DNA of 64,000 bases from Methanomassiliicoccaceae archaeon (GTDB lineage: Archaea; Thermoplasmatota; Thermoplasmata; Methanomassiliicoccales; Methanomassiliicoccaceae): contig CAVSJV010000018.1 of assembly GCA_963728405.1 (NCBI GenBank), positions 1 through 64,000 on the forward strand, read 5' to 3'. The first letter of the stretch is position 1; each line of letters opens with the position of its first letter. Both the position numbers and the translations under genes were made by a program. Shown here in pieces: positions 6,001 to 26,779 of this stretch. Below the pieces are notes generated by a model. It searched no databases and was not told the origin of the DNA. It saw only the letters and a program-made list of their open reading frames with translations.

Positions 6001-8833
6001 GACCACGTTGGAGACCCTGCTAAGGGTGGCGAAGGTGTAGTCGTCAGAATAACCGTAGCTGCTCCTCCCTAATCTGAAATGGTAGATGGTGTTGGAACTC
6101 AAGCCCGTAATGGTGGCGGAATGCGATGTCCCGCTTCCTCCGCTCTGTGAGCTACCGTAGGATGTCGTGGTACCGTAGTATGCGGTCGACGAGACGGATT
6201 GGGCCGTCGTCCAGGTGATCGTCGCCGAAGAGATGGTGATCAAGCTGACGACGACGTTGGAGACCATGCTAAGCGTGGTGAACGTGTAGTCGTCAGGAAA
6301 CAGCCAGATGTGCTCTTTCCAGCCCTGAAGTGGTAGACCGTATTGGAGAGCAGGCCGGTGATCGTGACGGAGTAAGTGCCAGTTCCTCCGCTTACCGTGG
6401 TACCGTACGAGGTCGTGGTCCCGTATTGCACCTCGGACGCGACGCTCGAAGCGGTCGTCCAGGTGATCGTCGCCGAAGAGACGGTGATCGAGCTGACGAC
6501 CACGTTGGAGACCATGCTAAGCGTTTTTAATGTCGAGTCTCCAGAGTAACCGTAGCTGCTGCTGCCGAGTCTGAAATGATAAATAGTATTGGAGAGCAGG
6601 CCGGTGATCGTGACGGAGTGAGAAGTGCCAGTTCCTCCGCTTACCGTGGTACCGTACGAGGTCGTGGTCCCGTATTGCACCTCGGACGCGACGCTCGAAG
6701 CGGTCGTCCAGGTGATCGTCGCCGAAGAGACGGTGATCGAGCTGACGACGGCGTTGGAGACCATGCTCAGCGTGGTGAACGTGTAGTCGTCAGAATAACC
6801 GTAGCTGCTGCTGCCGAGCCTGAAGTGGCAGGTGGCATTGGAGAGCAGATTGGTAACGGTCGCCGAATGCGATGTGCTAGTTCCTCCGCTTACCGTGGTA
6901 CCGTACGAGGTCGTGGTCCCGTATTGCACCTCGGACGCGACGCTCGAAGCGGTCGTCCAGGTGATCACGGCGGTAGTGACGGTGATCGAGCTGACCATTA
7001 CATCAGTAATGGAGACGGCGAGTGTGGTGAAAACCATGTCCGGGCTAGTGTCAGAGGAAAGACCGAACAGGGACACCGACTCCACGTAGAAGTGATACGT
7101 GGTATTGGCCGAGAGGCCGGTGATCGTTACCGAATGAGAGGTGACTATGATAATGGTGTCCTGACTGACATGAGAACCGTATGATGTGGTGGTGCCATAG
7201 TAGACGTGTGATGACCCCGCGACGTCTGTTGTCCAAGTAATGATGGCGGACGTGGTGCTGGGGGCGGCGTTCAATGTTAGAGATCGTTATTCCACTGGAG
7301 GCAGCATAGACTACATCCTGGTCAATGGACGAAGATGAGAGGGCATTCAGGGTTGTAGAAGAGAGCAAATCCTGCTCCAGGGAGGCCAGGCATGTCATAA
7401 ATCTTCTCTTGGGCGGCGAATGACAGCATAATATCGTCGCCGATGCTCCCGCCTACGAACCCGTCGACCGCGGCCATTAGAGAGTAGACTTCATTCAGTG
7501 CTGCTTCTTCCCTGAAGTTCACTAGGTCGTCCACTATCGTATCGATCGAAGCGAGCAGCATAGCTCTGGAAGCAAGATCGACAGAACACGCCATCGTCCA
7601 GTGTGGCGATGTAGCTCTTGAGATCATAAATGTCCAGCGATTCGTACAACACGTCCTGGAAGTAGAACAGCTCGGTCGTGTTGTGGTGTGCCTCCACCCA
7701 GATGCAGGGACGTCGCCGTTCAAACTAGCTATGACTGACGGGAACGATGACTCGATGCGATCGGTCGACAGTCTCTCGGCGTCGATTAGGATCGATCCGC
7801 ATGATGAGATGGCCGAGGCGGAGATCTCCGTCCACGCTTTCGTAGCGTTCTCCCAGGCGACGAAGAAGCCGTCACCGTGAGCGGTCGCGGACACTTGGCC
7901 GTAGATGCCTGATGCGTGGGAGACTGCTACCGAACTCCAGGACAGGTGGTCGCTCGACGATATCGCTCCCTGGACGATGGCACCCGCGACGCCGTTGTAG
8001 GACCAGCCGATGAACACGATGCCGTTGTTGAGCACGAGGTCGAGGTCGGCGACGACACCGGTAGAGAAGCTCGCGATCAGCGTGGTCGCGTCGACCTGCG
8101 CTCCGTCGTAGCCGATGCTGCCGTAGACGATAGCATCATATGGGAAGCTGCAGTGAACGGCGTAGTATAATGCCGACGCGTCGGCGACGATGCGGCCGAA
8201 GCCATCGCCGATCTCTAGGGCAGCCATCGGCGTGGCGCCAACGAGCTCGTTGCCGTCGAGCGTAATGTTCAGTATGGAGAAGACCGAGGAGTTGCCGTTC
8301 GGTCTCATCAGTCCAAGGTACAGGCGGCCGTCCGTCAGCGCGACCGACGGGGACGAGCCGTCGCACAGCTGGAACGTTCGGCTCCAGGTAATGCCGCCGT
8401 CGGACGAGTGCTGGACGTAAATGGTCTGGTTGGCACTCTCGGTCAATCGGCCTTCGAACGCGATGCTTACATCGAGGTCCGAGGAGACGATGGAGATGTT
8501 GGAAATGGAATAGAACACCGGCGAGATGGCGCGGTCGGAGGAGAACGATGCTCCGTTATCGAACGAAATCTTATAATCAAGTTCCATGCCGCCGTCGACG
8601 AGGTTTGCCCAAGCGAGGTGCAGCGTGCCGTTCGACGAGATCGTCGACGACGGAGAGGTCGCCCCATCGTTCGATATCGTCAAACGGCGGTGATCGTGCT
8701 CTGCCGGATCGGTCAAGGCGAGCACATCGTCCCCTACCTCTGCGGACACTCCATTCGTCATAACCTGGAACACGGTCATGACCATTATCAAGGCACAAGC
8801 TACGCTGATCAATTTGAGGATAGAACGCCTCAT
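1..8833 (-). CDS. Giant secreted/surface protein (signal peptide, BNR-like region, ~15 FN3-like repeats, PPC-like domain, DxDxDG calcium-binding repeats); frameshifted, runs off the left edge
   Basis: ORFs 7322..8833, 7491..7697, 7051..7398, 6240..7274, 5380..6267 and 4139..5356 join through single-base shifts. My manual translation of ~4170 to 1 stays open (e.g. DSDGDGLSD, DPTDPDSDDDGLLDGSE, DTDDDGILDGEE). N-terminus MRRSILKLISVACALIMVM is a signal peptide. Confidence 0.85.
3460..7290 (-). repeat. About 15 tandem ~250 bp FN3/purple-acid-phosphatase-N-like repeats
   Basis: Recurring unit SNVVVSSIT-ATITWTT-S-VQYG-TTSYG-SHS-TITGL-TYHFR. Several units are near-identical at DNA level (e.g. 6340-6520 vs 6590-6770). 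Confidence 0.9.
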
Positions 8834-8859
8834 CTTCTCCGACTCCCGAGAAAGGATTA

Positions 8860-8882
8860 GTTTATCTATATTTATAATTAAT
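8860..8882 (-). promoter_or_regulatory. Putative archaeal TATA box of the giant surface protein gene
   Basis: Minus strand reads TAATTATAAATATAG ~35 bp upstream of the ATG at 8833; GGAG precedes the ATG. Confidence 0.55.
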
Positions 8883-9219
8883 TATTCATTTGAATAGAAT
8901 CTATCTATTCAGGTGAAAGATTTACTGCGATGAACGGGTGGAGATCGATTTCGACCTTATTCTCAGAAGGCGCATGGCCGCATACGTCGATCTAGCATTC
9001 GACGATGGAACCCAGTTTGGGGAAAGGGTATGGCCGTGCAAGGTGGTCAACTAGATACTCAGAACATTATGGGAGTACATTCTGAATCGAATATTCCGTA
9101 CGAGATCATTCATTGAATCCTGAACTGACCTATGAGGTTGATCCCTTCCTTGATTTGATCATTTTTCCATTCATCGAACATTGACCAAGACCAATCTCCA
9201 GAAGAACAAGGTGATCTTC

Positions 9220-9244
9220 GTCCGGTATCCTACCGATACCGGAT
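9220..9244. repeat. Palindrome copy 1 (GTCCGGTATC-CTACC-GATACCGGAT)
   Basis: 10 bp inverted arms with 5 bp spacer, intergenic. Confidence 0.85.
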
Positions 9245-9621
9245 ATTTCGTCACCTGCTAAGGTCAAAATAACTCACCGCAGCGCTCTCTCAGGTCAATG
9301 AAGCATACAATCGTATGTTTTCACATGAGCCAGCTATAAAGTCGGAAAACGTTTGGAGTGAATTTCAACAATAATGGTCTAGCGTAGAATAAGGGTGGGC
9401 TCGAGCTCTAATATTACTCCTCATTCTGAGCCATATGACAAAATCAAAGTCTAATTCAAACGGTAAAACGCGAGGCTAGTCTGATAAAAACTTTCTCTTT
9501 TTCCATAGATACTGTCAACGAAATATCATGATGTGTTGCGGAGTTGGCAGAGCCAAGGTCTTTGTCCTCGAGACTGAAAAAAATTCACTTCCAGGCAATT
9601 AATGGTCGCTCCCCTCTCCGA

Positions 9622-9675
9622 CGTCCGGTATCCCATGCTTTTCGTTCGGTATCATGGACGAAATCGTCTGGTATC
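9622..9675 (+). repeat. Three phased direct half-sites CGTYYGGTATC
   Basis: GTCCGGTATC 9623, GTTCGGTATC 9644, GTCTGGTATC 9666 (21/22 bp period). An inverted half-site GATACCGGAC lies at 9881-9890. Confidence 0.75.
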
Positions 9676-9985
9676 GTTTCTTATCGGCAGCTGGATGGGC
9701 TGATGGGAATGACCGACCGGGGCATAGGTGAAGGAATGATATGGTATCCCCTCGGTTCTATGAGCACCAGTTCCGTTGGAGTGAGCGCCACAAGGCAGCA
9801 AAATCATGTTGTTTCAAGCGTAAATCGATCGATGGCCAGTCAATGATATATGTCCGCCACGGTTGTCACCACTCTACGGCGATACCGGACGAGGGCACGC
9901 TCAAATCACCTGATTACTAACCTTGTAATCAATAGGTCGAAGAGCCAAATAGGTTTTCACAATAAAAAAATAGTAAGTCATATAT

Positions 9986-11143
9986 ATGGGATTATACAGG
10001 GAGCGAATGTTCTCGACCGACCGGGAATCCGAGAGCGTTTCTGAAAGCTTCAACATAGAGAAGCTAATAATGCCCGGTCAGGAAGTTGGTATAACTCCCC
10101 TTTTATTACTTTTAAAACAGAAGGCGAGGGAAAGAAAGAGGAGCATTACTGCAATATTATTTGGCGCAGATGAAGACCCAATGGACATTTTTATGAGATA
10201 TAAAAAGCATGGGTTTAACATTGAAATTAGAAGATATCATTCGTTTTCTGAGGCCCATCTCACCGTAGATAAAAACGAACTCGCAGATGAGGATAAATCA
10301 CAAGCAATATCCGGATATTTTTACATCCTGCCAATCGAACCTGGAATCTGGACATCAATCACCTTCGAGAAAGAAATATTTGTAGAAAAGGGATTAATGA
10401 AACTACTTCAAAAACATTCAATGAGCATCAGTAGGACTGGATTTACTTCAAACGAAATCCATGATGTATTAACAAAAATAATCGAAAAGGACGGAATGAC
10501 TGCCGAGGTCATAAAAGCGGTAACTTATCCCTATGGTGGAAATGGGGATATTGATTTCAATAGTCGAAGTTTACAAGATTTATTCCACTATTGCACTACA
10601 GGTCGTCGATATCTTGACAAAGCAAAGATCCGTATTACTAGGGTTGGTCACCAACCATCTGATATTTTCGTCAGTAGAGATGGCATGTTCAGATTCTACA
10701 AAGGAGACATTGATTTCTTTTTTAGGATAGTTCTTAAGTCATTCGCGACCCCAGCGAAGAGGACTAAAAAGGTTCTAGAGAAACGGGAAAGAACATATGG
10801 GAACTATGATTCGAAACCAATAAAGATTGAGTTCGAACATGAAATGTTCAAGGAACAAGGAGATAACGACAAATTCGTTAGAGCAATATCAAAAATAGTG
10901 AAATCTGGTGTTTCGGTCTATCATCGGAATCCCTACCTGCACATCTCGTTGGTCGATTTTCAAGATGGATCCACATACGATATCTTTGCAGTATCGTCCA
11001 GATCATTATGTGTTGTCCCATCATTTAGGTCATCGTTAGATTCGTTACAAAGAATCAGCAGCCAGATGTTTAAGAATTTTGATGAGGGATTGGTAAAGGA
11101 CTGGGAAGAAATTGAAAGAACGATAGACGACTATTTCGTGTGA
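9986..11143 (+). CDS. Hypothetical protein (AT-rich), first gene of a two-gene operon
   Basis: 385 aa ORF, low GC, 4 bp upstream of the next ORF; no domain recognised; true start may be downstream. Confidence 0.8.
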   Translation: MGLYRERMFSTDRESESVSESFNIEKLIMPGQEVGITPLLLLLKQKARERKRSITAILFGADEDPMDIFMRYKKHGFNIEIRRYHSFSEAHLTVDKNELADEDKSQAISGYFYILPIEPGIWTSITFEKEIFVEKGLMKLLQKHSMSISRTGFTSNEIHDVLTKIIEKDGMTAEVIKAVTYPYGGNGDIDFNSRSLQDLFHYCTTGRRYLDKAKIRITRVGHQPSDIFVSRDGMFRFYKGDIDFFFRIVLKSFATPAKRTKKVLEKRERTYGNYDSKPIKIEFEHEMFKEQGDNDKFVRAISKIVKSGVSVYHRNPYLHISLVDFQDGSTYDIFAVSSRSLCVVPSFRSSLDSLQRISSQMFKNFDEGLVKDWEEIERTIDDYFV

Positions 11144-11147
11144 TTCT

Positions 11148-12242
11148 ATGAGTCCTGCTCATCCTCCTGAAGCTGAACTCAAAGATCATGCCAAATGCGT
11201 AAAAGGCCTCAAGGTAGATTTTAGCAATTATGATCAAACCGTCGATGTAATATCCTGTTGGCACTCGTATTTTGACTCCATTTATGTAAAGAAAGGCGCA
11301 GGGCTATTTTTTGATCGATATCCAATAATTGGAGATAAGGGACTCACTCCAGATTTTACGATGGTTTTTAACGAAGACTATGCGATTATTGCAGATGTCG
11401 CCAGATCAATAGAGAACAACTCCCACTCCCTTGAATCAAAGGCAGCTCAATTAAAGAATTATGATGGATGTAAGAAATTAAGATCGGGACCGGGTCCGAA
11501 TGATTGGATTGAACCAAAAACAATAGACCAGATGTTAATCCTTCATACTCAGTTCTCTGATAGGGGAGCAAGAGAACTATTGAAAATTCAAAAAAAAGAA
11601 GAATACAAATTGGATAATAATCTGGCCATCCTTGAATATGATTTATCACAAGCCTACGCAGATTCAGCATATATTTTCAAAAAGGTCGGCATCGCTCGGA
11701 ATAAGAAGTTGAGGGATAAGAGTCTACCAAAGCAGCTTCAATTGGAGCGACTGTTCGGAAAAGAATTGAAGTCTCTGAACTGTACGCCAGACAAATTTGT
11801 TGTAAATAAGGCAACACACTTGTTTTGTAACGATTCCCCATGTCCAATATATCTGGTTGCGAGGCTTTGGGATAGGGGTTTGATCAATTTATTGACCGAT
11901 GACCAATTGGATACGTGGCATCAAGGAACCTCAATGCAAAGCATTCAAATTGAAACCAGTTCCTCAGAACTACGCAATCTTATCCATGACAAAATATCTC
12001 CAGGGTGCTGGATCCCCGAAGGTTGTATGGACAATTCATTGGAATTTTTAAAGATTGCTGGCAGGGCAGAAAATGATAATAAAAAATGGACCATAGATTA
12101 TGGTAATATTCAAATAAAGAAGACAAAAAAACGAACAGGGATTGGACCCATTAAGGATGAACTGGTCGATCAATTTTACGAAATGAGGGAATATGCAGAG
12201 TTACTATCTACAATGTATTGTGAAGGTCTGAAAAACACGTGA
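11148..12242 (+). CDS. Hypothetical protein with possible degenerate PD-(D/E)xK nuclease-like motif
   Basis: 364 aa ORF; motif LTPDFTMVF...IIADV. Confidence 0.7.
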   Translation: MSPAHPPEAELKDHAKCVKGLKVDFSNYDQTVDVISCWHSYFDSIYVKKGAGLFFDRYPIIGDKGLTPDFTMVFNEDYAIIADVARSIENNSHSLESKAAQLKNYDGCKKLRSGPGPNDWIEPKTIDQMLILHTQFSDRGARELLKIQKKEEYKLDNNLAILEYDLSQAYADSAYIFKKVGIARNKKLRDKSLPKQLQLERLFGKELKSLNCTPDKFVVNKATHLFCNDSPCPIYLVARLWDRGLINLLTDDQLDTWHQGTSMQSIQIETSSSELRNLIHDKISPGCWIPEGCMDNSLEFLKIAGRAENDNKKWTIDYGNIQIKKTKKRTGIGPIKDELVDQFYEMREYAELLSTMYCEGLKNT

Positions 12243-12302
12243 ACGTTAAAGTATCACCAAAAGACTCAAAATATAGTCAGAAGTCATTATTTTAATAATG
12301 AA

Positions 12303-12566
12303 CTAGATTATTTTGGTTCAGAGCCACTAATCGAATCCATACTCAGGTTGCTGAACTGGAGAGACCGTCTCTCGCTACACTATGCGATCTGATTGGGACC
12401 CCTGTTAGGTAATCGATTATCCACCCAGTCGAGCGTGTGTCCCCAATTGTCTAGGGACCCACCGATTGAAAACCTTCAGAGCCATAATGGTTCTCAGCTA
12501 CCTCGCATATTCCGTTTTTCGACGGCCATACTCACCTTCCTTCGATTGGGGCTGGGAGAATCATCT
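12303..12566. other. Structured intergenic element (candidate ncRNA)
   Basis: Nested stems 12322-12335/12541-12553 and 12345-12354/12494-12503 plus internal hairpins. Confidence 0.35.
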
Positions 12567-12610
12567 AACAGATATCGGATATTGGAAAACGATTCCAATA
12601 GGCTGCTAGC

Positions 12611-13674
12611 TCACTGCAACCGTTGATTTGTTCTGTCATGAAATAGCTGAATGAATTTTTTAAACAGGATAATGCCATCCTCGCCAACTTGCTTTTTGGC
12701 GAATATTGGATCTTGTTTCGGTACCTTGTCGATGTTGAGAATGGTCATATCTTCGCCAGCGTGGATTATTCCATGTCTCCATTCTATATACAACTGAATT
12801 GTCTCCAACTCGCCAGGACTCATACTTAGATCCGAAACTCTTACCCCATATGCGTCCTTATATGCATCCTTAAATGATTTCCAGTTCTGAAAATTAATAC
12901 GCTTTTTTGATTGATGAATTCAAGTACCTGTTCGCCGGCAGTTCCGAATCTTTCCTCTATTTCCTTCCTAGCATTTACTCTATATTTTGAGGGAACGAAA
13001 TCGTACATGGCGTCAAGATTGATCAGTGATTCGTTTTTCATAGAGATCTCGACGAACCTATCTCGAACATAGACTTCAAAAGCTGTGGTCATCATCACAA
13101 TTGATTGCTGGACAAGAACGGATTCCGTCAAATAATCAGGCCCTGGGCATAACTTTAACAGGATCTCAATCTTCGTGAGTTGAAAGTCAAACACTTCTTT
13201 CGGTGTCGAGCATGCCACTGTCTTCCCCCCCTCCCTTATCGAAAAAAAGCCAACTACGACTCCCACATCCCCAACTCGATAAATCTGATTGTTCCTATCA
13301 ATTCCTAGTTTGATATCTGGATAGTCGCGGGCCTCGGATATCAATAAGCTACTACTACCAATCTTACCGGCATACAAACAGTCATTCGAAGGCGACCATG
13401 TTACTGTTATGGCAGGCTGTTCTGACTCGATTATACTAGTGACATCAACTTCAGCCATTCTTGTTGGCATGCCCATATTACTTCGATAGAAGCGAACTAG
13501 ATAATCTGGACGCAAAACTAATTGAAAAATAGAATTTTTGTGTACATGCTGCCAAAGAGTGATTTCTTCTTCATGCGAACGTGAGAGTACGCCAATTTTT
13601 AATTTTAAAAATATCGTGCCCTCTTCAGGATTAATATTCGCCCTCAGACTATTCATTACTCCCACTGCGGACAA
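12611..13674 (-). CDS. HEPN domain protein (beta-rich N-terminus, C-terminal HEPN with RxxxxH); frameshift at an A-run near 12905
   Basis: 12841..13674 plus 12611..12823. Adding one A gives ...RINFQNWKSFKDAYK...WRHGIIH. The helix SIVMMTTAFEVYVRDRF is typical of HEPN. Confidence 0.7.
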
Positions 13675-14036
13675 CGTTGTGCACTATCTTGATATTATCT
13701 TGAGAAGAAGATTCGAATGCATAGATAATATGCTTTGAAGTAGTTGGATTCGTAGTTTCAAAAAATCTTGATGGGTTTGCTAAATGAAATGTGGTTTGAC
13801 ATTATCCAATCCAGTTGTTTCTTGGACAGAGAATAACCCAATCATCGAGGATAATGATCATTTAGTCCGTTTTTAAATAATTATCGTTGTCTGGTACTAT
13901 ACTGAAACATAGAGATATTTAGTATTGAAGGTTGGTAATAGCGGATAGTTGGTATGTATTGGTTGCTCAAGTGATATTGGGTATCCACGAGGCACCAAGC
14001 CCTCTTACTGGAGTCTGGAGCTAGTTGCCTGGTTGA

Positions 14037-14061
14037 GCCCGGTATCAATACGATACCGATA
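14037..14061. repeat. Palindrome copy 2 (GCCCGGTATC-AATAC-GATACCGATA)
   Basis: Degenerate arms, same 5 bp spacer. Confidence 0.7.
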
Positions 14062-14091
14062 TTTTCATATCTGGACCATCATAAGAGCATC

Positions 14092-14116
14092 GTCCGGTAT
14101 CTGATGGATACCAGAC
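14092..14116. repeat. Palindrome copy 3 (GTCCGGTATC-TGATG-GATACCAGAC)
   Basis: 15 bp from the stop of the 14131..14778 gene. Confidence 0.85.
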
Positions 14117-14130
14117 CACTTACATGTGAC

Positions 14131-14778
14131 CTAAAGCTTCGTCAGCTCCGCGATCTCGCCGTTCCTGACCACAACGCGCTGCCCGTTGCCGACGCCGTTG
14201 TCGACAACCCGCACGCCCCAACGCTTGTTCATCTCGTTGACGGCGTACTGTATCACCTCGAACGGCCGCTTGCCCGACGAGCGCTTCCTGCCGTTCTTCA
14301 GGTGAACGATGAACTCGACCGGGACGAGCGCCAAACGACACCATTGCCCTGACTGTTAGTAATGCTGAACGAACGATGCCGTTTGAGCTCGATGTGATCG
14401 ATGTCTTCTTTACTAACGAATCCACCATTCCTCACGAACTTGCGATAATAGAGAGGAGGGATCTCCAAACCATTGTCGTAGAGGTGGAGAGGTTTGGAGG
14501 ACAGCCCACCGTTGATGTAAGATGTACTCGCCATACCAAAAAATCAATATTATCCCAAGTATCCAGACTACATCGACCATCAGGTAGAATGGCGTTATGG
14601 CCCCAAGCTGGTTCGAATATATCTCAGCGATTAAGAGCGCAATTGATAGGATCCCTGCCGCCCGGAGACCAAATGCACCTAGCAGGTACTTGCGATTGGA
14701 GTATAAACCACCGGGCAGGTATGCCGCGTACAATTGTTCTTCGAACAGCACTGCACCTTTATTCTCGATCACGCTCAA
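14131..14778 (-). CDS. Hypothetical membrane protein (2 TM plus soluble domain), two frameshifts
   Basis: Joins 14413..14778, 14298..14534 and 14131..14334. Confidence 0.65.
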
Positions 14779-14907
14779 CTCCCCTTTAACGGGAGTACTT
14801 TGAGCGATTATCTAGATGTTGGTCGGAGCACCATTAGCACAACAACGATGCCATGGAATTAATGGGACCAGATACATTGGCGCGATAATATGGACGCCCA
14901 ACCGCTT

Positions 14908-14932
14908 GTCCAGTATCCGTTAGATACCAGAC
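14908..14932. repeat. Palindrome copy 4 (GTCCAGTATC-CGTTA-GATACCAGAC)
   Basis: Intergenic, 5 bp spacer. Confidence 0.8.
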
Positions 14933-15040
14933 AGTGAAAACCGGTGCTTGACGAATGGAAGAAGGCCATAATATTAGCAAAGCTCAACGACTCTGGCCTC
15001 GAATCGTGCCGTCCTTAAGAAAGTGAGAGAGCATCATATT

Positions 15041-15065
15041 GTCCGGTATCGGCAAGATACCGGAC
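15041..15065. repeat. Palindrome copy 5 (GTCCGGTATC-GGCAA-GATACCGGAC)
   Basis: Perfect arms. Confidence 0.9.
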
Positions 15066-16400
15066 TCGAGCGGGTAGCCAGTAGAAGGCGGACCCCCCAA
15101 CGGGAAATCGAGGCAAGTACCCTGACGATTGAGGATGAGACAGCAGGGGGTGGCCCGGGCAGGGGGATAGGGGTCTCAAGCCTGCATTTTAGCTAGGGTA
15201 ATCGTCAGTTGCCAGTAGGGTCAACGACCCAGGGGGCTCGAGGCAGGCCCCTCCCGACCTCACTGGAACCAGCCCCTTCGTATCCTGGGAGCGATGGTCC
15301 GCACCCCCACCCGATCGAGGCCATCCAGTGCATCTCAGAAGCAACGGAACTTTGAGCTAACCACCCCCTACCCACTGCCCAGGAGGGGGTAGGACCAGGG
15401 GTCAACGCGCCTGCGCATTATGTGCGTAGGTTCGGCGGGTCGGGTCACCGGGTCGATAGGGTGGGTTCCGGGCCCTAGGTAAGGCGACCGGGTCGGGTTG
15501 CTATCCTCGTCTTCCCCGCCCCCTGCTTTCCTCCGCTCAGAACGGCCGAGAACTGCTCGTTCCTCGTTCGAAGCTTCGATGCACCGATAAGGCGTCCAGA
15601 CGCGGAAGATTTGGAATTCGAGGCGAGACCCGCCGCCTAGAATCGGAGATACCGGGGCTAGATCCGACCGTGACGCGAAAGAGACTTCCAACCCTGCCTT
15701 AGCGCCAACGAACGGGAAATCTCGCCGGAAGGCCGTTTCCGCACGTCTCTCAGGTTTATCGGCAGTATCGTTGTGATCTCCCGGCGGCCGCCGCTAGCTG
15801 TTGCCTTCAACGCTTGTTGCCTTGTTTCGTCGATCAGGGGCGGAAGTGAGCTAGGGGAGAGGTACGGCACGAATAATGTGTGCCTATCCTGCCTCTCAGC
15901 CCCTTTGCTCGGGTCACCTCTCGAAGAGGTAGACCCCGTGACCCCTTCCAACCGTCGATCTCTCTGCCACCCCTAAACTCGTTCCCTAGGGGAGGGGATT
16001 AAACAGCAGGCATGAAAATGTCCGGGGGTCGGCTGCCTCGACGCAGGCAAGGTGCTTGCAGGGGACAGGCTCGCTACACTCACGCGCGTAGAGGGTGGTC
16101 GTTGACCCGGTGGTCGACCGGGTGGTTGACCCGGTGGTCGAGGGTGGTCGACGGGGAGGGTCAAGTCAATCCGTATCCCTTCCCCCGCCCCGTTTGGGCT
16201 TATCGGTGTAACGGGTGTCGGAAAAAAATCTGTTGGGAAGGGGCTTCATCGATCGAGTTTGATGCTGAAGGTTCGACGGTCATGCTTCCGGCTGCCGCAG
16301 CGGGGACAGCGGCGCTGCAGGTTACGAGTCTCTCGTTTTCCAAGAATAACCCAGGTGTCACTCCACAACCCCTACCGCGCATTCATGACGGTACGAGCGA
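15065..16400. ncRNA. Candidate large structured non-coding RNA or structured DNA origin; strand unknown
   Basis: GC-rich, no credible ORF, many nested long-range complementary segments. Confidence 0.4.
16094..16150 (+). repeat. Five GGTGGTYG direct repeats at 10-15 bp spacing
   Basis: Copies start at 16094, 16109, 16121, 16133 and 16143. Confidence 0.8.
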
Positions 16401-16596
16401 CGGAGAACTTAATTGAATGGAACGGGGGGGGGGGGACCCTTCGATGCGGCAATAATGATCCATTGTGGCCAGCTCTTCTTATCTGCTGCTATATTACTGC
16501 TTATTGACAACGAGCCAGTTCGTGCTTTTTATAAAAAAGATAAAAATGGGGGAGTGATTGAGTAAAGGGTGAAAGAGGGCTAAGCCATGGGTAGCC

Positions 16597-16884
16597 TTAA
16601 GAAAGAATCTCGTTTATCTCGGTCAACTTCTCCGCTACCTTCTTCCCTTTGTCAGTTAACCAATACTTGAAAGTGATCCTAGGCGACTCGATATGCTTTC
16701 TATCGACCAGACCGGCCTCGAACAGCCGGTCCATGGTTCGCTTCAACCTATCGTAGGTCGGTATGATGAAACGGAGATCGGTCAGGTTGACCTCCCCATG
16801 GTCGTTGATGTACCTGATTAATCCCGATGCATGGCCCAGGTCCATGACCGTGGAGTAATCCGTTTCACGATTAAGCTTTGACAT
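16597..16884 (-). CDS. Winged-HTH transcriptional regulator (HxlR/ArsR-like)
   Basis: 95 aa; LFEAGLVDR...YWLTDKGKKVAE wing motif. Confidence 0.85.
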   Translation of the reverse strand: MSKLNRETDYSTVMDLGHASGLIRYINDHGEVNLTDLRFIIPTYDRLKRTMDRLFEAGLVDRKHIESPRITFKYWLTDKGKKVAEKLTEINEILS

Positions 16885-16929
16885 TCGGAAAAGGTCATAA
16901 TGATTCTATGACTAAATGAAATTCATTCC

Positions 16930-17006
16930 GTTTATTCTTTCTTAAACGATAAATTATTAATAACCACAAAAGTGCATGCGCCCATGCCGTTTAAGAAATC
17001 TTAAAC
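16930..17006. promoter_or_regulatory. Two 18 bp operator-like palindromes in the divergent promoter region
   Basis: GTTTAAGAAATCTTAAAC 16989-17006 and GTTTATTCTTTCTTAAAC 16930-16947, flanking AT-rich TATA-like sequence. Confidence 0.6.
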
Positions 17007-17040
17007 AACGGTTCAAAGCGAGCGATCGGAGGAAAGTTAC

Positions 17041-17768
17041 ATGGAATCAAGCTGATCGAGCGTCCTTGCTGACCCCCAGCAGGACCGATCTCAGGGAATA
17101 GGATCAAAAAGCCAGATCATAAATGGCTCATCATCTGGAGCGTTGACAGTAATCCTAGTAATCGTCGCTGCCATCGGCGCGAGCATCGTCCTCAACGGTT
17201 CCGGCGGTTCCGCCAACGGCCCAAACGATTCCGACGGTTACAACGATTCCAGTAACAATGTTAATTCACCAGAGGACCGGCGGGTCATTATCGCTCCGGC
17301 CGACGAATTGATATTGAGCGCTTCCGACCTCTCATCCGCGTGGAGATCGAACGGTCCGTGTTTTCCGGGCAGGGATACGATGCCAGTGTCACTGACCTCA
17401 GTTCCATCGAGCTGTTCGTTGGCGATGATGTCAGTGAGCCGCTGGGTGATGTCAAGATCATTCTGGTGGAGACGACTTCGGTTGATACCGCCAAGGAAGT
17501 GCTGGCCTCGTACATCGACAACGAGAACAGCGGGACCGCCTACTCCTTCGTCAAGATGACCAACGCTGTTGGTAACGAATCATACCAGGCTTCGTTGAGC
17601 GATCCTCAGTGGCCGAGCTACAGCGACCACGCCCTGCGCGTTCCGATTGAACAACTGTCGTGGTCATTATGGCATTCTATCACGACGACGCATACATCAT
17701 GACCGAGACTGTGGATGCACGATATTGTGGCGATGCAGCTGGAGCAGGTAAGAATGAACCTGCCGTGA
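17041..17768 (+). CDS. Membrane-anchored hypothetical protein, frameshifted
   Basis: Fragments 17143..17559 (TM plus N/S/D-rich linker) and 17340..17702; GGAGG upstream of ATG 17041. Confidence 0.5.
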
Positions 17769-17802
17769 GCTATCCTCGATCGTGGGGAGGAGGGTTGATA
17801 CA

Positions 17803-18195
17803 ATGGACTTGAGCGCGGAAAAGAAGAGGGAGATCTGGAGCTGGAGATACACACATACGAGAAAGCGAAGAGGCAACAGCCGGTCGCGTACATCACGGCG
17901 ATCGTCGGGGCTGGCATGCTCGCGCTCGGGCTTGTCTGTTCCGTTGGTTCGGTCTTCATGATTCTGGGTATCGCATTGATCGTCGTCGGCATCATCTCGG
18001 CGGCCATAGGCGAGGTCGGAGGCGTCAGGCTCTCCAGCTTGCGCAGGCAGCTCGACGAGCTCGATGCCGGAACTCCGTCGACCTCGATGACGGTATTGAG
18101 CACCGTCAAGAGCGCGAGATTCTGCAGATCATGCGGTCACACCTGCCGCCGACTCTGACTTCTGCGAGGGCTGCGGCAAGAAGCTTGGGGGTTGA
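17803..18195 (+). CDS. 2-TM membrane protein with C-terminal zinc ribbon, frameshifted
   Basis: FCRSCG...FCEGCGKKL after restoring the frame. Confidence 0.7.
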
Positions 18196-18198
18196 ACG

Positions 18199-18682
18199 AT
18201 GCACAATGAAGTGATCCAGAATAGAGGCGGCTCGATCAAGAAGTATAAGCGAAGGCGGAACATCGGCGCGGCTCTCATGATCGTCGGCGTTCTGTGCTTT
18301 CTCCTGAGTTTCATCCCATCGTCGAGCACTAGTTATACTTACTATCCGAACGGACAAGGTGGCGTTATTCCTTACCCTATGTCATCGACCACTCATCCGT
18401 TCCTGTTCATGATCGTTCCCGGCATCGCTTTCCTGATCGCTGGCGTTGCTCTCATTGTATCGTCGAGAAAGCGCTTGAAATGCATCGACAACGATGGAGT
18501 GATAACGAATGAACGCGCTCCCTCGATTGACGTCAATCTTCCGAAGGAACAAGCATCGATGGATGAGGCCCCAAGCCAAACGATCAAGGAACAGAGCAAA
18601 GACAAGTTCTGCCGGTTCTGCGGGGTACGCATGGAAATGAGTGATTCGTTCTTGCGGCGACTGCGGTAAGAGGGTCGCCTGA
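18199..18682 (+). CDS. 2-TM membrane protein with C-terminal zinc ribbon
   Basis: KFCRFCG...CGDCGKRV (shift near 18652). Confidence 0.75.
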
Positions 18683-18740
18683 AGAATTGTTGATGAGCGC
18701 GAGGAAGGCAAATCACCGATAAGCGTACTCTTATCGGCGC

Positions 18741-18765
18741 GTCCGGTATCGTAGTGATACCGGAC
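18741..18765. repeat. Palindrome copy 6 (GTCCGGTATC-GTAGT-GATACCGGAC)
   Basis: Perfect arms; preceded by hairpin CCGATAAG/CTTATCGG. Confidence 0.9.
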
Positions 18766-19041
18766 ATGCTGGCATATGTTCAATTTTTCGCTCAATTCCT
18801 GCCGGAATAATAATTATTTGCTCCCTTTATTTTTAATCGCAACCAATATAAACTCGATGCTGAATAATCAATATTCATAATTTGATATAACAAAATGAGA
18901 ATGAAAGTTCGCAAGAGATTACCCTTGATTTCGCAAAGTTTCTCTTTCAGCCTTTCACTTTGGCCAGCATGTTTGAGATCGAATTGAGGAACAGCGAATG
19001 CGCTCGATAGCGAGTCAAGCTGATCGAGCAAGGAAAATGGG

Positions 19042-20217
19042 ATGGGAATGTCGGAGCGAAAGAGGGAGCGGTCGAGCGAGCTCGACGAGCTCGATGCGAG
19101 CGAAGTCTTAAGAGAGCTCGACGGCCCTCTGTGCTCCGAGGGCGTAAACCTTGCCAAGAAACGAGGTCGCCCCAACAGAACCGACATGCAGGAGGTGGAG
19201 CGGTTGAAACTGGGCTGTCGCCCCTTCGCCGCCGCCATCAAACACTATTTGGATAGGAGATACGGAACAGTGGCCGAATCTACTTACAAGGAGGAAGAAC
19301 GAAAACTTCGATACCTAGCTGGCGTGTTCGAGAAGCTAAAGGATGAGCGCAGAATAAATACGACCGATCCACGGCACATGACTCGGAGAGAGATACAAGA
19401 ATTCATGGCATGGATGCGGAGAGAGGGACTGGACCCAGTAGCCCAGGCGAAGTACCTGCAATACCTGAAGGGGTTCCTGAAGTGTTACAAGAACTTCGCC
19501 ATGGATGAGATGAAGGCGGACGGTGTGAGATTCCCCAAGCCTACCAAAAAGCCGATCCGAGTGATCGCCGAAGGAGACCTGGACATTATATTCAGGACCC
19601 TTGGCAGCCTGGAAGAATGGAGAGGATCGGTCGCCAGGGGAATGATATCATTGTATTTTGCCACAGGGGTTCGACCAAAGGAACTAAGGTTGGCTCATTG
19701 CGAAGACCTGAATCTTCAGCAAGGTACTCTGTTCGTACGCCATCCGAAGGGCGAGGGGAGCTGGGCCAGCGCCGAACCGGTCGATATCATACGGCCGGAC
19801 ATGCTCCCGCTGATCAATCGATACCTATTCGAACGCCAGGAATATCTTAAGAATCAGGGGATGAGAAAGGCCACTGCCTTATTCCCGAACCTTTACCGAG
19901 GCCAGGATGAATTCTATTCTGCCAACGCCTTCAACGAGATCAAGCACATCGTTGAAGAAATGTCAGGGGTAGATTTCAAACTGAAGGACTTCCGGTCCAC
20001 GCTGACGACCATGACCGTCAACGGGGACCTGAGCCGCCTTCCCGCCATGTCGGCGCAGTTGAGGCACACCAATCTAGCAACGACGCAACGTTCATACTTT
20101 CGTATGCAGCAGGGCGTCGCCGGAAAGCAGCTCAAGGACGCTTGGAAAGAACATCCGATCGTCTTTCCCGAAAACACCGTTATTAAGAAAGATATTGATA
20201 ATGCTGGATATGTATAG
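19042..20217 (+). CDS. Tyrosine recombinase/site-specific integrase
   Basis: Catalytic motifs TGVRPKE (R), HPKG (K), KDFR (HxxR variant), QLRH, RSY (Y); start may be further downstream (~19186). Confidence 0.92.
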   Translation: MGMSERKRERSSELDELDASEVLRELDGPLCSEGVNLAKKRGRPNRTDMQEVERLKLGCRPFAAAIKHYLDRRYGTVAESTYKEEERKLRYLAGVFEKLKDERRINTTDPRHMTRREIQEFMAWMRREGLDPVAQAKYLQYLKGFLKCYKNFAMDEMKADGVRFPKPTKKPIRVIAEGDLDIIFRTLGSLEEWRGSVARGMISLYFATGVRPKELRLAHCEDLNLQQGTLFVRHPKGEGSWASAEPVDIIRPDMLPLINRYLFERQEYLKNQGMRKATALFPNLYRGQDEFYSANAFNEIKHIVEEMSGVDFKLKDFRSTLTTMTVNGDLSRLPAMSAQLRHTNLATTQRSYFRMQQGVAGKQLKDAWKEHPIVFPENTVIKKDIDNAGYV

Positions 20218-20220
20218 GAG

Positions 20221-20242
20221 TGGACCGATCGGGATTGGAACC
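20221..20242 (-). mobile_element. att core: tRNA 3'-end fragment (tRNA-Ala-like)
   Basis: Minus strand GGTTCCAATCCCGATCGGTCCA = T-loop plus acceptor 3' strand with U70 and A73; begins 4 bp after the integrase stop. Confidence 0.7.
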
Positions 20243-20434
20243 AACAAAACGACTGGCTTACTTCTCAATTGTACCGTCCATGTACAAAGCACTTGTTCGA
20301 GGCTATGAAATATGGACCAAACCCTTTCTAAATTATTTTTTAAAACAACAAATGCAGAGGTCAAGAGTGACAGCCTATTTTTCATCACCAATGTAAACTG
20401 CTCACAGTCCATTTTATCAGACCAGATCTTCAGC

Positions 20435-21601
20435 CTAGCTACGAACAGGGATGGTGAAGTAGAAGGTGCTGCCATGGCCCGGCTCGGACTCGACCCAGAT
20501 GCGCCCGCCGTGCCTCTCCACGATCCGCCGGGCGATGGCCAACCCCATGCCCGTTCCCTCGTACTCCTCCCTGGTATGCAACCGTCGGAACATTTCGAAT
20601 AAATTGTCCCTGTACTTGGGGTCGATGCCGATGCCGTTGTCTCGGACGGAGAAACCCCATTCTTCTCCTCCTTCCACGGACACATGGACCTTCGGCGGTT
20701 CAGGCCCACGGTACTTGATGGCGTTGCTGATGAGGTTCTGCAGCAGAAGCACCATCTGGGTTTTATCGGCCATGATTGTCGGTAGCGAGTCGTGGGTTAT
20801 CGTGGCACCACTTTCCTTGATACCGGCATCAAGGTCCTTCTGTGCCAAGGCGAGGACCTCGTTGATGTCCGTCATGGACGGGTTCATGTCATTCTTATCC
20901 ACCATGGAATAGGTGAGCAGGTCCTCGACCATCGCATTCATTCGTTGGGAGCCTTCCACGGCGAAGTCTATGTAGCTTTGGGCCTTGGCGTCCAACCGGT
21001 CCCGGTATTGTGTCTTCAATAGTCTGAGGTAAAGCGAGACCATCCTGAGCGGTTCCTTGAGGTCATGCGAGGCGATGTGGGCGAACCGTTGCAGGTCGGC
21101 GTTGGAGCGTTGCAGTTCCACCCTGGCTTTTTCCTCCTCCACCAGCCTCTTACGCAATATGGCATAACGGATGGAGCGGACCATGACCTCACCGATGATA
21201 GTCTCCTTGAACAGATAGTCCTGTGCCCCGTGCCGCATCGCTCTCATCGCCGTCTCCTTGTTGGAGTTAGAGGTGAGGACGACGACCGGGACCGTTCCCG
21301 ACATTCTCTCCACGGCCTCGAAGGTATCGTATCCTTGGCTATCTGGCAGGTTAAGGTCAAGGACCACGGCATCGTAGCCCTTCTCAAGTTCATCGTAAAC
21401 CGATGACAGATTGGTAACGACTTTTATGGAGAAGCCCTCATCGGCGAGCATGCGTCGCATGCGTTCGGCGTCGTGAGGGTCGTCCTCGATAAGCAGGATG
21501 ATTGACGTTTCCCCCCCCCGAGCATGAACTAGGAATCTTCCTATCCCTAAAAAAAGATTTACCTTGGGGGTACTTTGCTCACGGACCTTTCCCAGCGGCA
21601 A
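20435..21601 (-). CDS. Receiver-histidine kinase hybrid
   Basis: LLIEDD/DLNLPD receiver; ASHDLKEPL H-box; GTGMGLAI G-box; likely true start ~21525. Confidence 0.9.
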   Translation of the reverse strand: MPLGKVREQSTPKVNLFLGIGRFLVHARGGETSIILLIEDDPHDAERMRRMLADEGFSIKVVTNLSSVYDELEKGYDAVVLDLNLPDSQGYDTFEAVERMSGTVPVVVLTSNSNKETAMRAMRHGAQDYLFKETIIGEVMVRSIRYAILRKRLVEEEKARVELQRSNADLQRFAHIASHDLKEPLRMVSLYLRLLKTQYRDRLDAKAQSYIDFAVEGSQRMNAMVEDLLTYSMVDKNDMNPSMTDINEVLALAQKDLDAGIKESGATITHDSLPTIMADKTQMVLLLQNLISNAIKYRGPEPPKVHVSVEGGEEWGFSVRDNGIGIDPKYRDNLFEMFRRLHTREEYEGTGMGLAIARRIVERHGGRIWVESEPGHGSTFYFTIPVRS

Positions 21602-21625
21602 TCCCGCACCATTTGTAAAATGGTT

Positions 21626-22310: not shown

Positions 22311-22342
22311 ATGGTCTCGGGTTCAAATCCCGCTGCTGTCCA
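22110..22342 (+). mobile_element. Two degenerate att-like remnants
   Basis: 22110-22228 resembles the reverse complement of 20221-20330; GGGTTCAAATCCCGCTGCTGTCCA at 22319-22342. Confidence 0.5.
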
Positions 22343-22343
22343 A

Positions 22344-24926: not shown

Positions 24927-25285
24927 GTCCAGGGGCTCCTCGTTATTCCTATGCGCATTCATTGGTGAGTTCCAGTCATCGCTTGCCTAGATACCGTCCA
25001 CCATTCCATTGGGCGATCCTACTTGGACCCTATCCCGGATCGTCCCATAACCGCGAATTGATGAATTTCGGTCGTCCCGACCTCAGATGTTCGCAACCCT
25101 TTGATCGGGGTTGCGCTCCGACCCCATTACTATTGGGCTAGCATGTATCTCCATAGAACTATATCCGCGATGGCCTAAAATCCCCGGAGAAAATGAAGGA
25201 TGGACCTTCTTGGAGGGTCCGGTGGAGGCTCGATCGGGGAGTCGCCCCCTCGCTCAGGTCGTTCTCCTGCTCAGCGTACCAGGAT

Positions 25286-26594: not shown

Positions 26595-26779
26595 CGAGCG
26601 GAGCACGAAAAACCCCTTTCCATCTTTTATTGACATCATTGGCACCGTCCGTCTATTCTCGTCCCAGCGCTCGATGGCGAGATAAGCGCCTTCCGGACCG
26701 GTTGTACACCTCTCTCCCAGCAACTTCGACGGCACAGCTTTTTATATCATTCTCTGTCCTGAAAATACCAGGTGTAAAT

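Follow-up and report, generated by a model that had tools for sequence, protein, structure and literature searches.

Why should one 25-base palindrome recur between the genes of an archaeal island that also carries a tyrosine integrase gene? In the 64-kb stretch of DNA analysed here (the window), part of a 2.73-Mb genome, the sequence GTCCGGTATC-N5-GATACCGGAC, hereafter P, occurs six times within 9.2–18.8 kb. The arrangement of these copies and of their counterparts in other genomes suggests that P, found where integrase modules have their edges, is probably bound by a protein. Contigs of the window's genome are labelled C unless prefixed by G, which denotes other genomes.

Copies of P in the island and beyond

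A pattern scan allowing up to three mismatches located P1 (9220–9244, spacer CTACC, one mismatch), P3 (14092–14116, TGATG, one mismatch), P4 (14908–14932, CGTTA, two mismatches), P5 (15041–15065, GGCAA, perfect arms) and P6 (18741–18765, GTAGT, perfect arms), and no further full copy in the window. P2 (14037–14061, AATAC) is degenerate, with four mismatches among the 20 specified bases and a 7-bp stem left. The six copies listed in an earlier note are thus confirmed, five of them with at most two mismatches. All six are intergenic, and 100 dinucleotide-preserving shuffles of the window gave a mean of 0.00 matches; P in the island is real and far above chance.

The earlier note saw the motif nowhere else, which holds for full copies within the window and fails beyond it, as four copies with at most two mismatches lie on other contigs of the same genome (C2:178206, C3:120591, C5:3532 and C17:296906), in which the reversed control pattern has 0 matches. 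The motif is scattered to this extent, yet three of these four copies sit at relics of integration modules. P is also present in 7 of 23 other Methanomassiliicoccaceae genomes, at one to three copies each, and perfect copies persist in different genera. The spacers, described as different at every site, do differ among the six window copies, but the same or reverse-complement spacers recur in other genomes: arms and spacer of P6 are identical upstream of the G015 integrase gene, the reverse complement of the P1 spacer (GGTAG) is found in G008, C3 and G021:C16, and that of the P2 spacer (GTATT) in G021 (L021:10264) and L089.

Across the 22 P sites, 30 changes affect a single arm, one is symmetric and two alter both arms to different bases; they are mainly transitions, and the GGTATC core is seldom altered. 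The excess of one-arm changes over the single symmetric one implies that base pairing is not what is conserved, and their one-sidedness indicates a DNA site bound by protein rather than a hairpin. The cores of the two half-sites lie 11 bp apart, centre to centre.

The half-site (about CGTCCGGTATC) occurs singly as well, which had been overlooked. Three direct repeats, 21–22 nt apart, begin at 9623, 9644 and 9666 (9623–9675, plus strand; the second and third have decayed in G008), and a single inverted half-site (9881–9890, minus strand) lies 96 nt upstream of the open reading frame starting at 9986. A hairpin does not explain these four. With up to one mismatch, half-sites occur at about 0.1 per kb genome-wide and are locally enriched (15 in 9.5 kb against about 1 expected), with no genome-wide enrichment (268 against 325 for the reversed control).

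Modules at the P sites

Reading from the left, P1 directly abuts U1 (9245–9406, plus strand), which can be aligned to the 3′ termini of intact integrase genes beside tRNA-Val in C3, G015 and G021. U1 combines the decayed 3′ terminus of an integrase gene of the tRNA-Val type with a short tRNA-Val remnant behind it, the reverse complement of the tRNA 3′ end (about 9393–9406). Intact integrase genes of this type carry GGTATC-N6-GAT at the exact position that P occupies in U1. Units of the U1 type also adjoin P at C5:3532, C17:296906, G003 and G008, and the homology of the window to G008 (L023:9566–13153; 90.8% over 3608 nt) begins at 9221, inside P1. It includes a cargo gene pair (9986–12242, plus strand; 385 and 364 aa, 95–96% protein identity to G008) that has no match in Pfam, NCBIfam, PHROG or PADLOC and that an atlas search tentatively links to MJECL33-like and MJECL32-like clusters. 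An open reading frame at 12841–13674 (minus strand) has a weak HEPN match (PF18735, E 0.0024; 18.2 bits, below the cut-off of 28.4). Module M2 (14131–14778, minus strand), whose reading frames were chosen by sequence inspection, comprises a 67-aa frame (14131–14334), with its stop 15 nt from P3, and a 121-aa membrane protein frame (14413–14778); neither has family matches in searches that included Pfam, NCBIfam and PHROG.

Just after P4, positions 14937–14955 match the host flank of the att site downstream of the aIF5B gene at 17 of 19 bases, a weak match (E 0.35). At P5 begins homology to C3:120592–120874 (70%), and P5 is followed by U2 (15066–15328, plus strand), a conserved GC-rich non-coding unit of about 260 nt ending in the att-like core GAGGCCATCCAG (15317–15328). 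U2 has no coding signal and no Rfam match, and its RNA folding is not better than that of shuffles (z −0.82 and −1.38). The U2-type unit in C3 ends where homology to the G008 chromosome downstream of aIF5B begins, and in G008 the 3′ end of an integrase gene abuts that same point.

Farther right, a 95-aa winged-helix protein (16597–16884, minus strand; HxlR, 21 bits against a cut-off of 20.8, with weak PHROG matches to transcriptional regulators) is a candidate binder of P. Directly beside P6 lies a second hairpin, CCGATAAG-N6-CTTATCGG (18716–18737), which occurs only beside P upstream of integrases (the window, G015, G021 and the metagenome copies L086 and L099). From P6 towards the integrase gene runs an AT-rich block (18766–18920, plus strand) that is conserved with G021 (74.8% over 210 nt), although the integrases themselves share just 28% identity. 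The 391-aa tyrosine integrase (19042–20217, plus strand; PF00589, 34.2 bits against a cut-off of 27.1) is directly followed after its stop codon by a tRNA-Ala(TGC) 3′-end fragment (20220–20242, minus strand; 22 of 23 nt), an att remnant, and homology to C6:45032 begins at 20219.

Wherever the flank is conserved across genomes, P marks the inner edge of the integration module, followed by the integrase gene or its remnant and then by att. Fragments of tRNA-Val, tRNA-Ala or tRNA-Leu, or the site downstream of the aIF5B gene, serve as att; recognisable att cores are of these kinds, not P, and in intact modules they lie 1.3–1.5 kb from it. On solid matches, P adjoins an integrase gene, integrase remnant or att remnant at 12 of 22 sites, namely P1, P5 and P6 of the window, those on C3, C5 and C17, those in G003, G008 and G015, G021:8872, and both in G011, where tRNA-Leu fragments are 184 nt (E 3e-4) and 95 nt (E 3e-23) away. 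Three further sites lie near such sequence by weak matches. The remaining seven (P2, P3, the C2 site upstream of katG, G015:C11, G021:C16, G023 and L089, the last on a short contig) have no integrase or att remnant within 350 nt, which weighs against the reading preferred below.

The suggestion that P sites delimit modules is borne out. Homology starts or stops at P between the window and G008, between the window and C3, and among C5, C17 and G003, and ends about 25 nt from P, at the outer foot of the second hairpin, among the window, G015 and G021. The closest relatives have no synteny with the island, and the left ends of the three elements in the window are not definable. Close pairs of P at module junctions are likewise real: junctions carry two copies, 30–117 nt apart, and no single common site. 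Two of three inter-P stretches there match att-locus sequence weakly (E 0.35 for P4/P5 and 0.067 for G021 10122/10264), and some close pairs may enclose att remnants.

The proposed link between the motif and the tyrosine integrase is strengthened by the hairpin-plus-P block, which lies upstream of integrases in two other genera. The integrase is the only protein common to P-bearing loci, the near-identical G008 module aside. P is shared by the integrases of the window and of G015 and G021, at 28–29% identity, and is found upstream of none of 27 closer or similar relatives (about 39–65% identity) and of neither paralogue on C4 and C7; its distribution does not match the integrase phylogeny, which weighs against the preferred reading. 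Upstream of related integrases across the order, perfect dyads of 8 bp or more around a 5-nt spacer number 7 in 27 loci; shuffles yield 0.55, and 7 was reached in 0 of 200. The G015 and G021 integrases are 87% identical and their cargo differs: it contains Cas1 in G015 and is a GC-rich stretch of about 1.25 kb with no convincing genes in G021. In G008 the module has an IS insertion and a frameshifted integrase. In G001, which has no integrase beside aIF5B by tblastn, the site downstream of that gene contains two adjacent P-like half-sites, GTCCAGGTATC and TCGGTATC.

A proposed binding site of the integration backbone and its alternatives

The reading that we prefer, at about even chances, is that P is a predicted binding site and part of the integration backbone in one family of site-specific integrative elements from Methanomassiliicoccaceae, and that the array arose by accretion and decay of at least three elements. 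P would be read in double-stranded DNA as two inverted half-sites, the half-site serving also singly and in direct repeats. It lies at the inner module edge, in at least one element also about 95 nt inside the far end, and is common to elements of different att specificity (tRNA-Val, tRNA-Leu, tRNA-Ala and aIF5B-downstream). The six copies within 9.2–18.8 kb would then be due to at least three decayed elements or remnants lying head to tail, putatively U1 (9220–9406, integrase deleted), U2 (15041–15328) and the intact module (18716–20242), with cargo between them. A dimer of the integrase, or of a small accessory or host DNA-binding protein, may bind P, and binding may set integrase expression, help assemble the recombination complex, or both, in the manner of bacterial attP arm-type and accessory sites. 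Mosaic joints would fall at P because it is the sole stretch common to otherwise unrelated elements. The direct abutment of P1 on the integrase remnant in U1 weighs against this reading.

P could instead be the recombination site itself, the integrase exchanging strands within C-N5-G such that P-flanked cargo is excised, inserted or swapped; if true, archaea would have an equivalent of integron cassettes, pdif modules or heterospecific lox sites. Inverted arms of 9–10 bp around a short asymmetric centre fit a simple tyrosine-recombinase site, P stands on both sides of cargo in the window (M1, M2 and M3) and in G011, breakpoints coincide with it, and G015 and G021 share one backbone with different cargo beyond the P/hairpin block. 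The GGTATC-N6-GAT motif where P sits in U1 and the P-like half-sites of the chromosomal G001 site point the same way. Yet junctions hold two copies, some possibly with att remnants inside, rather than one common site; copies flanking a module differ in spacer, which ordinary strand exchange disallows; P beside integrase remnants is full on both arms, with no hybrid carrying an integrase-derived arm; and the block conserved among the window, G015 and G021 stops at the second hairpin rather than at P. We regard this reading as unlikely, and integron-like capture with P as the crossover, raised by the earlier note, is not supported, given the paired copies, the att cores elsewhere and the low scores of the integrase against NCBIfam integron-integrase models (20.1 and 18 bits; cut-offs 265 and 435). 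A purely transcriptional operator, through which an element or host regulator bound to P and to the direct repeats would govern the promoters of cargo and integrase across the island, with no role in recombination, is distinctly unlikely. The dyad, its 11-bp spacing, the single and direct half-sites and the intergenic position of every site suit such a role, as do the placement of P6 in a conserved, promoter-like AT-rich block that moves independently of the integrase gene, the winged-helix gene of the island and the enriched dyads upstream of related integrases. Against it, P-bearing loci have no common regulator, P stands at no regular distance from gene starts (77 to about 740 nt) and at some sites directly after stop codons, no half-site lies near the promoter of the winged-helix gene, and the tight link to att remnants is left unexplained. 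Of the element-wide operator or partition network envisaged earlier, the operator part is possible, and no partition gene was seen.

That P is a relic without present function, copied with pieces of mobile elements and merely drawing breakpoints as a palindrome, seems improbable. Many contexts are decayed (deleted integrase, the interrupted G008 module, solo copies), and arm changes are mainly one-arm transitions; but P is common to three unrelated flank families and to sites without conserved flank, its core seldom changes, three evenly spaced direct half-sites are intact in the window, and perfect copies are kept in different genera. A single-stranded hairpin, whether RNA (terminator, processing, stability) or single-stranded DNA (REP/RAYT-like or a substrate of HUH enzymes), is very improbable: the perfect 10-bp stems with 5-nt loops, the position of P3 15 nt and of P6 with the second hairpin 47–72 nt after a stop codon, spacers flipped between homologous sites like hairpin loops, and the two changes in P4, both G-U wobbles on the minus strand, are outweighed by one-arm changes (30 against one that preserves pairing), by retention of the arm sequence itself across genera and unrelated flanks, and by direct half-sites unable to form hairpins. 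No T-run follows the hairpins, and P is unlike REPs in numbering only 10 per genome and in showing no enrichment across the genome.

Comparison with known systems

Integron attC and pdif (XerC/D) sites are palindromic, with conserved arms around a variable centre, and bracket modules near a tyrosine recombinase gene. P resembles them in all these respects, but is paired at junctions instead of forming one common site, has a 10-5-10 rather than an 11-6-11 geometry, and brackets modules of 0.8–4.8 kb with several genes on both strands, next to an integrase far below the integron-integrase cut-offs. Stoperators of cluster A mycobacteriophages are asymmetric, oriented with transcription and bound by a cognate repressor; like these and KorB networks, P is a short site present many times between the genes of a mobile element, and unlike stoperators its loci share no regulator.

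Arm-type and accessory sites of bacterial attP (lambda Int arm sites, Xis and IHF sites, P2 Cox boxes) are short motifs apart from the crossover core, in direct and inverted repeats. P is likewise a non-core motif, direct and inverted, common to elements of different core specificity and 30–190 nt from att cores at several element ends. It differs as a perfect dyad rather than single repeats, and in intact modules it lies beyond the integrase gene, 1.3–1.5 kb from the core, a greater distance than a classical arm site allows. Neither an arm-binding domain nor an excisionase was recognised.

Among archaeal systems, the SNJ2 integrase of haloarchaea has the cofactors Orf2 and Orf3, the latter with a MarR-like domain; the available part of that account describes no binding sites for them (PMC8371274). 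The 95-aa protein of the window is, in general terms, likewise a small winged-helix-type protein encoded with an archaeal integrase and could act on DNA near a recombination site. Archaeal elements also integrate in tandem at tRNA genes, with later integrase loss and module exchange in arrays (PMC8371274), and the island matches such arrays in same-orientation modules, graded decay, att remnants made of tRNA fragments, integrase loss and mosaic cargo. It departs from these arrays in mixing att types (tRNA-Val, aIF5B-downstream and tRNA-Ala) and in P itself, a conserved dyad at module edges common to different att specificities, of which the available part of that article makes no mention.

Copies, half-sites and distribution of the palindrome

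The dispersed palindrome GTCCGGTATC-N5-GATACCGGAC described in the earlier note (P) is real, occurring with zero to two mismatches at 9220, 14092, 14908, 15041 and 18741 (P1 and P3–P6), and its pattern finds no chance match in 100 dinucleotide-preserving shuffles of the window. The sixth copy then listed, P2 at 14037, is present but degenerate, with four mismatches and a 7-bp stem. The six spacers (CTACC, AATAC, TGATG, CGTTA, GGCAA and GTAGT) are exactly as first read, and the 64-kb window holds no further full copy. Half-sites had been overlooked, namely three direct copies at 9623, 9644 and 9666, spaced 21–22 nt, and one inverted copy at 9881. Between 9220 and 18765, 15 half-sites are observed versus about one expected, while the whole genome holds 268 (at most one mismatch) versus 325 for a reversed control, so the excess is local only, with no genome-wide enrichment. 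The geometry of P is 10-5-10, or 9-7-9 when read as C-N5-G. Between homologous sites the spacer flips, as in CTACC of the window versus GGTAG in genome G008, and again in GGTAT and GGCAT of contigs C5 and C17 of the source genome versus ATATC in genome G003; with respect to the flank, P thus keeps no constant polarity.

The source genome comprises 2.73 Mb in 18 contigs, and the window takes up the opening 64 kb of one that measures 98 kb. Outside this contig the genome has four further palindromes (C2:178206, C3:120591, C5:3532 and C17:296906), which brings the total to 10, six of them inside 9.5 kb; a control pattern has no match in this genome. With at most two mismatches, P is matched in nine of 40 related genomes, including seven of 23 others of the same family; two order-level matches (G028 and G029, two mismatches each) are possibly due to chance, the control also having matched once. 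An exact scan of public genome contigs returns 52 stretches, three of which are titled Methanomassiliicoccaceae or Methanomassiliicoccus, and the remainder comprise hairpins of bacteria with a T-run behind them and coding sequence, including a conserved Oscillospiraceae stretch. Among 16 metagenome stretches with exact matches, only L086 and L099 (a G021-type element) and L089 are related. The single viral-contig match (L083) has no protein in common with the island, and viral contigs scanned with the window integrase yield no relative. Left out of the counts are two G013 sites (four mismatches, a TTTTT spacer and a duplicated ABC-transporter flank), the weak L025:1147, the G028 and G029 matches, a third match in G011 (C50:3137), and the metagenome stretches L093 and L095, neither of which was judged to be related.

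The genome-wide scatter that would have told against the reading of the earlier note is found in part: P occurs on four other contigs, yet three of these four copies again adjoin relics of integration modules. A REP-type repeat was rejected on the copy number, the clustering and the half-site counts. Across its own genome, its relatives and public sequences, P is a low-copy motif restricted to the family, unlike REP-type repeats. The copy at C2:178206 (L018:5207–5231, two mismatches) has a frameshifted catalase-peroxidase gene 77 nt downstream of it and neither integrase nor att remnant within 350 nt.

Flank families, att remnants and module junctions

An all-against-all comparison of flanks yields three families, each conserved on one side of P only. 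U1 (9245–9406, beside P1) consists of a decayed integrase-gene 3′ end and then a short tRNA-Val 3′-end remnant; intact counterparts, with the integrase followed by tRNA-Val in the opposite orientation, occur in C3, G015 and G021. The same layout of a tRNA-Val or fragment, ~145–150 nt, and then P recurs in the window, C5, C17, G003 and G008, with an intact tRNA-Val(TAC) at C17:296906, a tRNA-Val(CAC) in G003 and a tRNA fragment at C5:3532. P directly abuts the integrase remnant in U1, and intact tRNA-Val-type integrase genes carry GGTATC-N6-GAT exactly where P stands; a third integrase remnant, on C17, is cut off at about the same place without P. For U2, beside P5, the window from 15041 is 70% identical to C3:120592–120874, and both copies terminate in GAGGCCRTCCAG. 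As GAGGCCRTCCAG stands directly downstream of the aIF5B gene in C3 and, in G008, the 3′ end of an integrase gene adjoins this very point, the point is the att of another integrase type. In U3, a second hairpin CCGATAAG-N6-CTTATCGG, P6 and ~155 nt of AT-rich sequence stand before the integrase gene, and this block is also found upstream of the G015 and G021 integrases, which are 28–29% identical to that of the window. Sought as a separate dispersed repeat, the second hairpin was seen only beside P upstream of integrases.

A 23-nt tRNA-Ala(TGC) fragment begins 2 nt past the end of the window integrase, where homology to another contig starts. G011 has two direct tRNA-Leu fragments ~7.9 kb apart, with one P copy 184 nt inside the one and a second 95 nt inside the other. 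The att types whose remnants adjoin P are therefore tRNA-Val, tRNA-Leu, tRNA-Ala and the site downstream of aIF5B; a search for att direct repeats of the G008 element found none. By our tally, 12 of 22 P sites lie near an integrase gene or remnant (within ~500 nt) or an att remnant (within ~270 nt) on solid matches, three are linked by weak matches, and seven have neither.

U2 itself (window from 15066; L015:4617–4885 in C3) is ~260 nt of GC-rich, conserved non-coding sequence between P and the att core. A structured RNA was considered and dropped as unsupported, with single-sequence folding z-scores of −0.82 and −1.38; two-sequence alignment folds give 5–6 compensated pairs on either strand. 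The terminal helix of U2 contains a single compensated pair. Rfam has no match to U2, nor does BLAST against the 23 other family genomes, and a decayed integrase end was rejected because neither blastn nor tblastx matches U2 to the G008 integrase. After U2, ~680 nt of the window, to 16011, are 60% GC without a convincing ORF, and four tandem 12-nt repeats (GGTGGTCGACCC-like, 16097–16159) lie inside a doubtful arginine-rich ORF at 16012–16416.

P is doubled at module junctions, with gaps of 30 and 108 nt in the window and of 117 nt in G021. The bracketed cargo modules of the window (M1, 9220–14061; M2, 14092–14932; M3, 15041–18765) measure 4.8, 0.8 and 3.7 kb, and their genes occupy both strands. 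Several homology breakpoints fall at or near P. The alignment of window 9221–12824 with G008 (90.8% identity) begins inside P1 and stops where G008 has an IS630-like insertion, the flank common to C5, C17 and G003 stops at P, and homology between the window and C3 begins at P; the block common to the window, G015 and G021 stops ~25 nt from P, at the foot of the second hairpin on its outer side. The IS630-like element, with terminal inverted repeats (L023:13154–14258), is inserted where the shared module ends and cuts short the G008 integrase, itself also frameshifted. The cargo gene pair 9986–12242 is 95–96% identical to G008 in protein, versus 87% for the housekeeping aIF5B of the two genomes, which are far more diverged elsewhere; this module therefore moved recently. 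Feature-based searches lead from the pair to MJECL33-like and MJECL32-like clusters (scores 0.96 and 0.89–0.92), and a weak HEPN ORF (12841–13674) adjoins it; together they may be defence-type cargo. The pair was rejected as a P-binding or replication protein, being absent from the P-bearing loci of G011, G015 and G021.

A synteny search for an empty site (window 1–9219, 18766–34000, 1–20000 and 40001–60000, against up to five same-genus genomes) returned only scattered paralogue matches, and positions 1–64000 have no long synteny with any same-genus genome, even G003, whose aIF5B is 97% identical. Paralogous histidine-kinase and response-regulator genes abound on the contig, which has the look of an accessory region. 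The integrase 3′ end and tRNA-Ala fragment occur in an inverted duplicate (20002–20245 and 21697–21939) flanking a histidine-kinase gene; 21626–21712 and 22246–22332 were noted with it, and further tRNA-Ala-like fragments lie at 21706–21722 and 22316–22334. C6:45032–47905 is a 95–99% identical near-duplicate of window 20219–22583, save for one replaced segment. To the right of the P and hairpin block in G015, L022:10081–16113 encodes a 408-aa Cas1 (PF01867, E 5e-65), small ORFs, a DUF968-like ORF and a 956-aa ORF, a casposon-like set beside the tRNA-Val integrase.

The integrase and candidate binding proteins

The 391-aa product of 19042–20217(+) scores 34.2 bits with PF00589 (Phage_integrase; cut-off 27.1), matches PHROG 1 integrase at E 3.2e-22 and has a C-terminal H...Y motif visible in its translation, and Pfam finds no arm-binding domain in it. 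Integrase is the only protein common to the P-bearing loci in an all-against-all BLASTP of 18 regions (ORFs of at least 45 aa, stretches up to ~11 kb cut around P sites), a comparison that distant small regulators could escape. A relaxed Pfam scan of the P-bearing regions (E 0.05) finds no common helix-turn-helix protein or regulator. The 95-aa winged-helix protein at 16597–16884(−) is a candidate P binder, without a homologue in the other P loci.

Integrase relatives (E 1e-25 or better) occur in 76 of 151 genomes of the order, and P is absent from all 27 other integrase loci inspected, so that P does not track integrase phylogeny. Upstream of the integrases, these 27 loci contain seven perfect dyads, 8 bp or longer and with arms spaced by 5 nt; the shuffle mean is 0.55, and none of 200 shuffles reaches seven. 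Each dyad is single-copy in its genome, save that G022 and G023 have a further, degenerate copy at a distance of 56 nt, and they were accordingly rejected as dispersed repeats. At six such loci (L129, L135, L138, L141, L143 and L149) the repeats are 8–10 bp, each with its own sequence, mostly 170–420 nt upstream of the integrase (~1115 nt in L135). Integrase genes of the group may in general be preceded by a dyad with a 5-nt spacer. In genome G001 (L105), GTCCAGGTATC and then TCGGTATC, two adjacent P-like half-sites, lie ~60–90 nt past the aIF5B stop, and tblastn detects no integrase beside this aIF5B gene. The site downstream of aIF5B serves aIF5B-type integrases in G008 and G021, and half-sites at such an att hint that integrases of this group may recognise them.

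Two metagenome contigs, compared at L099:3237–4439 and L086:2329–3585, share 99.97% identity rightwards of a single point. L099 carries a further element, which has an integrase of its own (45% identical to that of the window) and is inserted in the N-terminal coding region of the first integrase gene (GLYPFVCA), so here an integrase gene acts as an integration target.

Readings of P and comparison with known systems

Our preferred reading, held with moderate confidence, is that P would belong to the integration backbone as a dyad bound by protein, with a regulatory and/or architectural role, and that the window array would have formed by accretion of at least three decayed elements. The anatomy is observed directly; the binding and what it does are inferred. 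Compared with their consensus, the 22 P sites have 30 one-arm differences, one symmetric difference and two in which both arms carry different bases, so the conserved feature is arm sequence and not pairing. This, together with direct-repeat half-sites that are unable to pair, suggests that the predicted protein reads double-stranded half-sites and leaves an RNA or single-stranded DNA hairpin scarcely credible. That P, standing among decayed integrase ends and tRNA fragments, is a relic without present function seems very unlikely. Operators in a pure regulatory network, of the stoperator kind or like the KorB of the earlier note, would be quite unlikely, as neither BLASTP across the 18 regions, which could miss distant small regulators, nor the Pfam scan finds a cognate regulator gene in each element.

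Cassette exchange between P copies is unlikely, since P × P insertion would leave one shared site and not the two copies found per junction. At the start of the P4–P5 spacer, 17/19 nt agree with the chromosomal sequence flanking the aIF5B att (weak, E 0.35), the G021 pair encloses 16 nt that match the tRNA-Val T-arm at 15/16 (also weak, E 0.067), and G008 has an integrase-end remnant and a tRNA-Val fragment ~30–60 nt left of P. Such remnants, if real, would be predicted by tandem att integration and not by P × P insertion. A bolder version, distinctly improbable, takes P copies as lox-like targets with heterospecific spacers, which the integrases of the element family would use besides their tRNA or aIF5B att sites for docking, excising and swapping cargo in an archaeal integron-like exchange; a site would recombine only with an incoming circle whose spacer matches its own, and integrase genes would be deleted through their own P-like pseudo-site. 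If this reading is true, a cassette-like exchange system would be described in Archaea for the first time.

To our knowledge, very little is known about the control or assistance of archaeal integrases. As a conserved dyad, P marks the integration backbone of an element family that spans four att specificities and five or more methanogen genera, a handle with which to find the missing accessory or regulatory protein, and would help delimit integrated elements and relics in Methanomassiliicoccaceae genomes. A limited literature search found no description of the motif, which does not prove that none exists. The relevant passages of a 2021 review (PMC8371274) describe archaeal elements that integrate in tandem, lose their integrase and exchange modules within tandem arrays, and the only archaeal integrase cofactors named there are those of SNJ2.

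The likeness to integrons drawn in the earlier note does not extend to the integrase, which scores 20.1 bits with the IntI model TIGR02249 (cut-off 265) and 18 bits with NF011946 (cut-off 435; both NCBIfam). Neighbouring integron cassettes share a single site, in contrast to paired P copies, and are mostly promoterless, single-gene and in one orientation, whereas the modules here span 0.8–4.8 kb with genes on both strands. The suggested pdif parallel fails on geometry, pdif sites being XerC/XerD-type-bound 11-6-11 sites that alternate in orientation. Arm-type or accessory sites of attP, known from heterobivalent tyrosine integrases, are bound by the N-terminal domain of the integrase, by an excisionase or by a host factor. 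They lie on the arms within ~200 bp of the core, and P is so placed at U1-type sites (~145–150 nt from the tRNA-Val fragment) and in G011 (95 and 184 nt), although P6-type sites stand 1.3–1.5 kb from the att core. As with an attP arm motif common to elements of different core specificity, P is found beside four att types.
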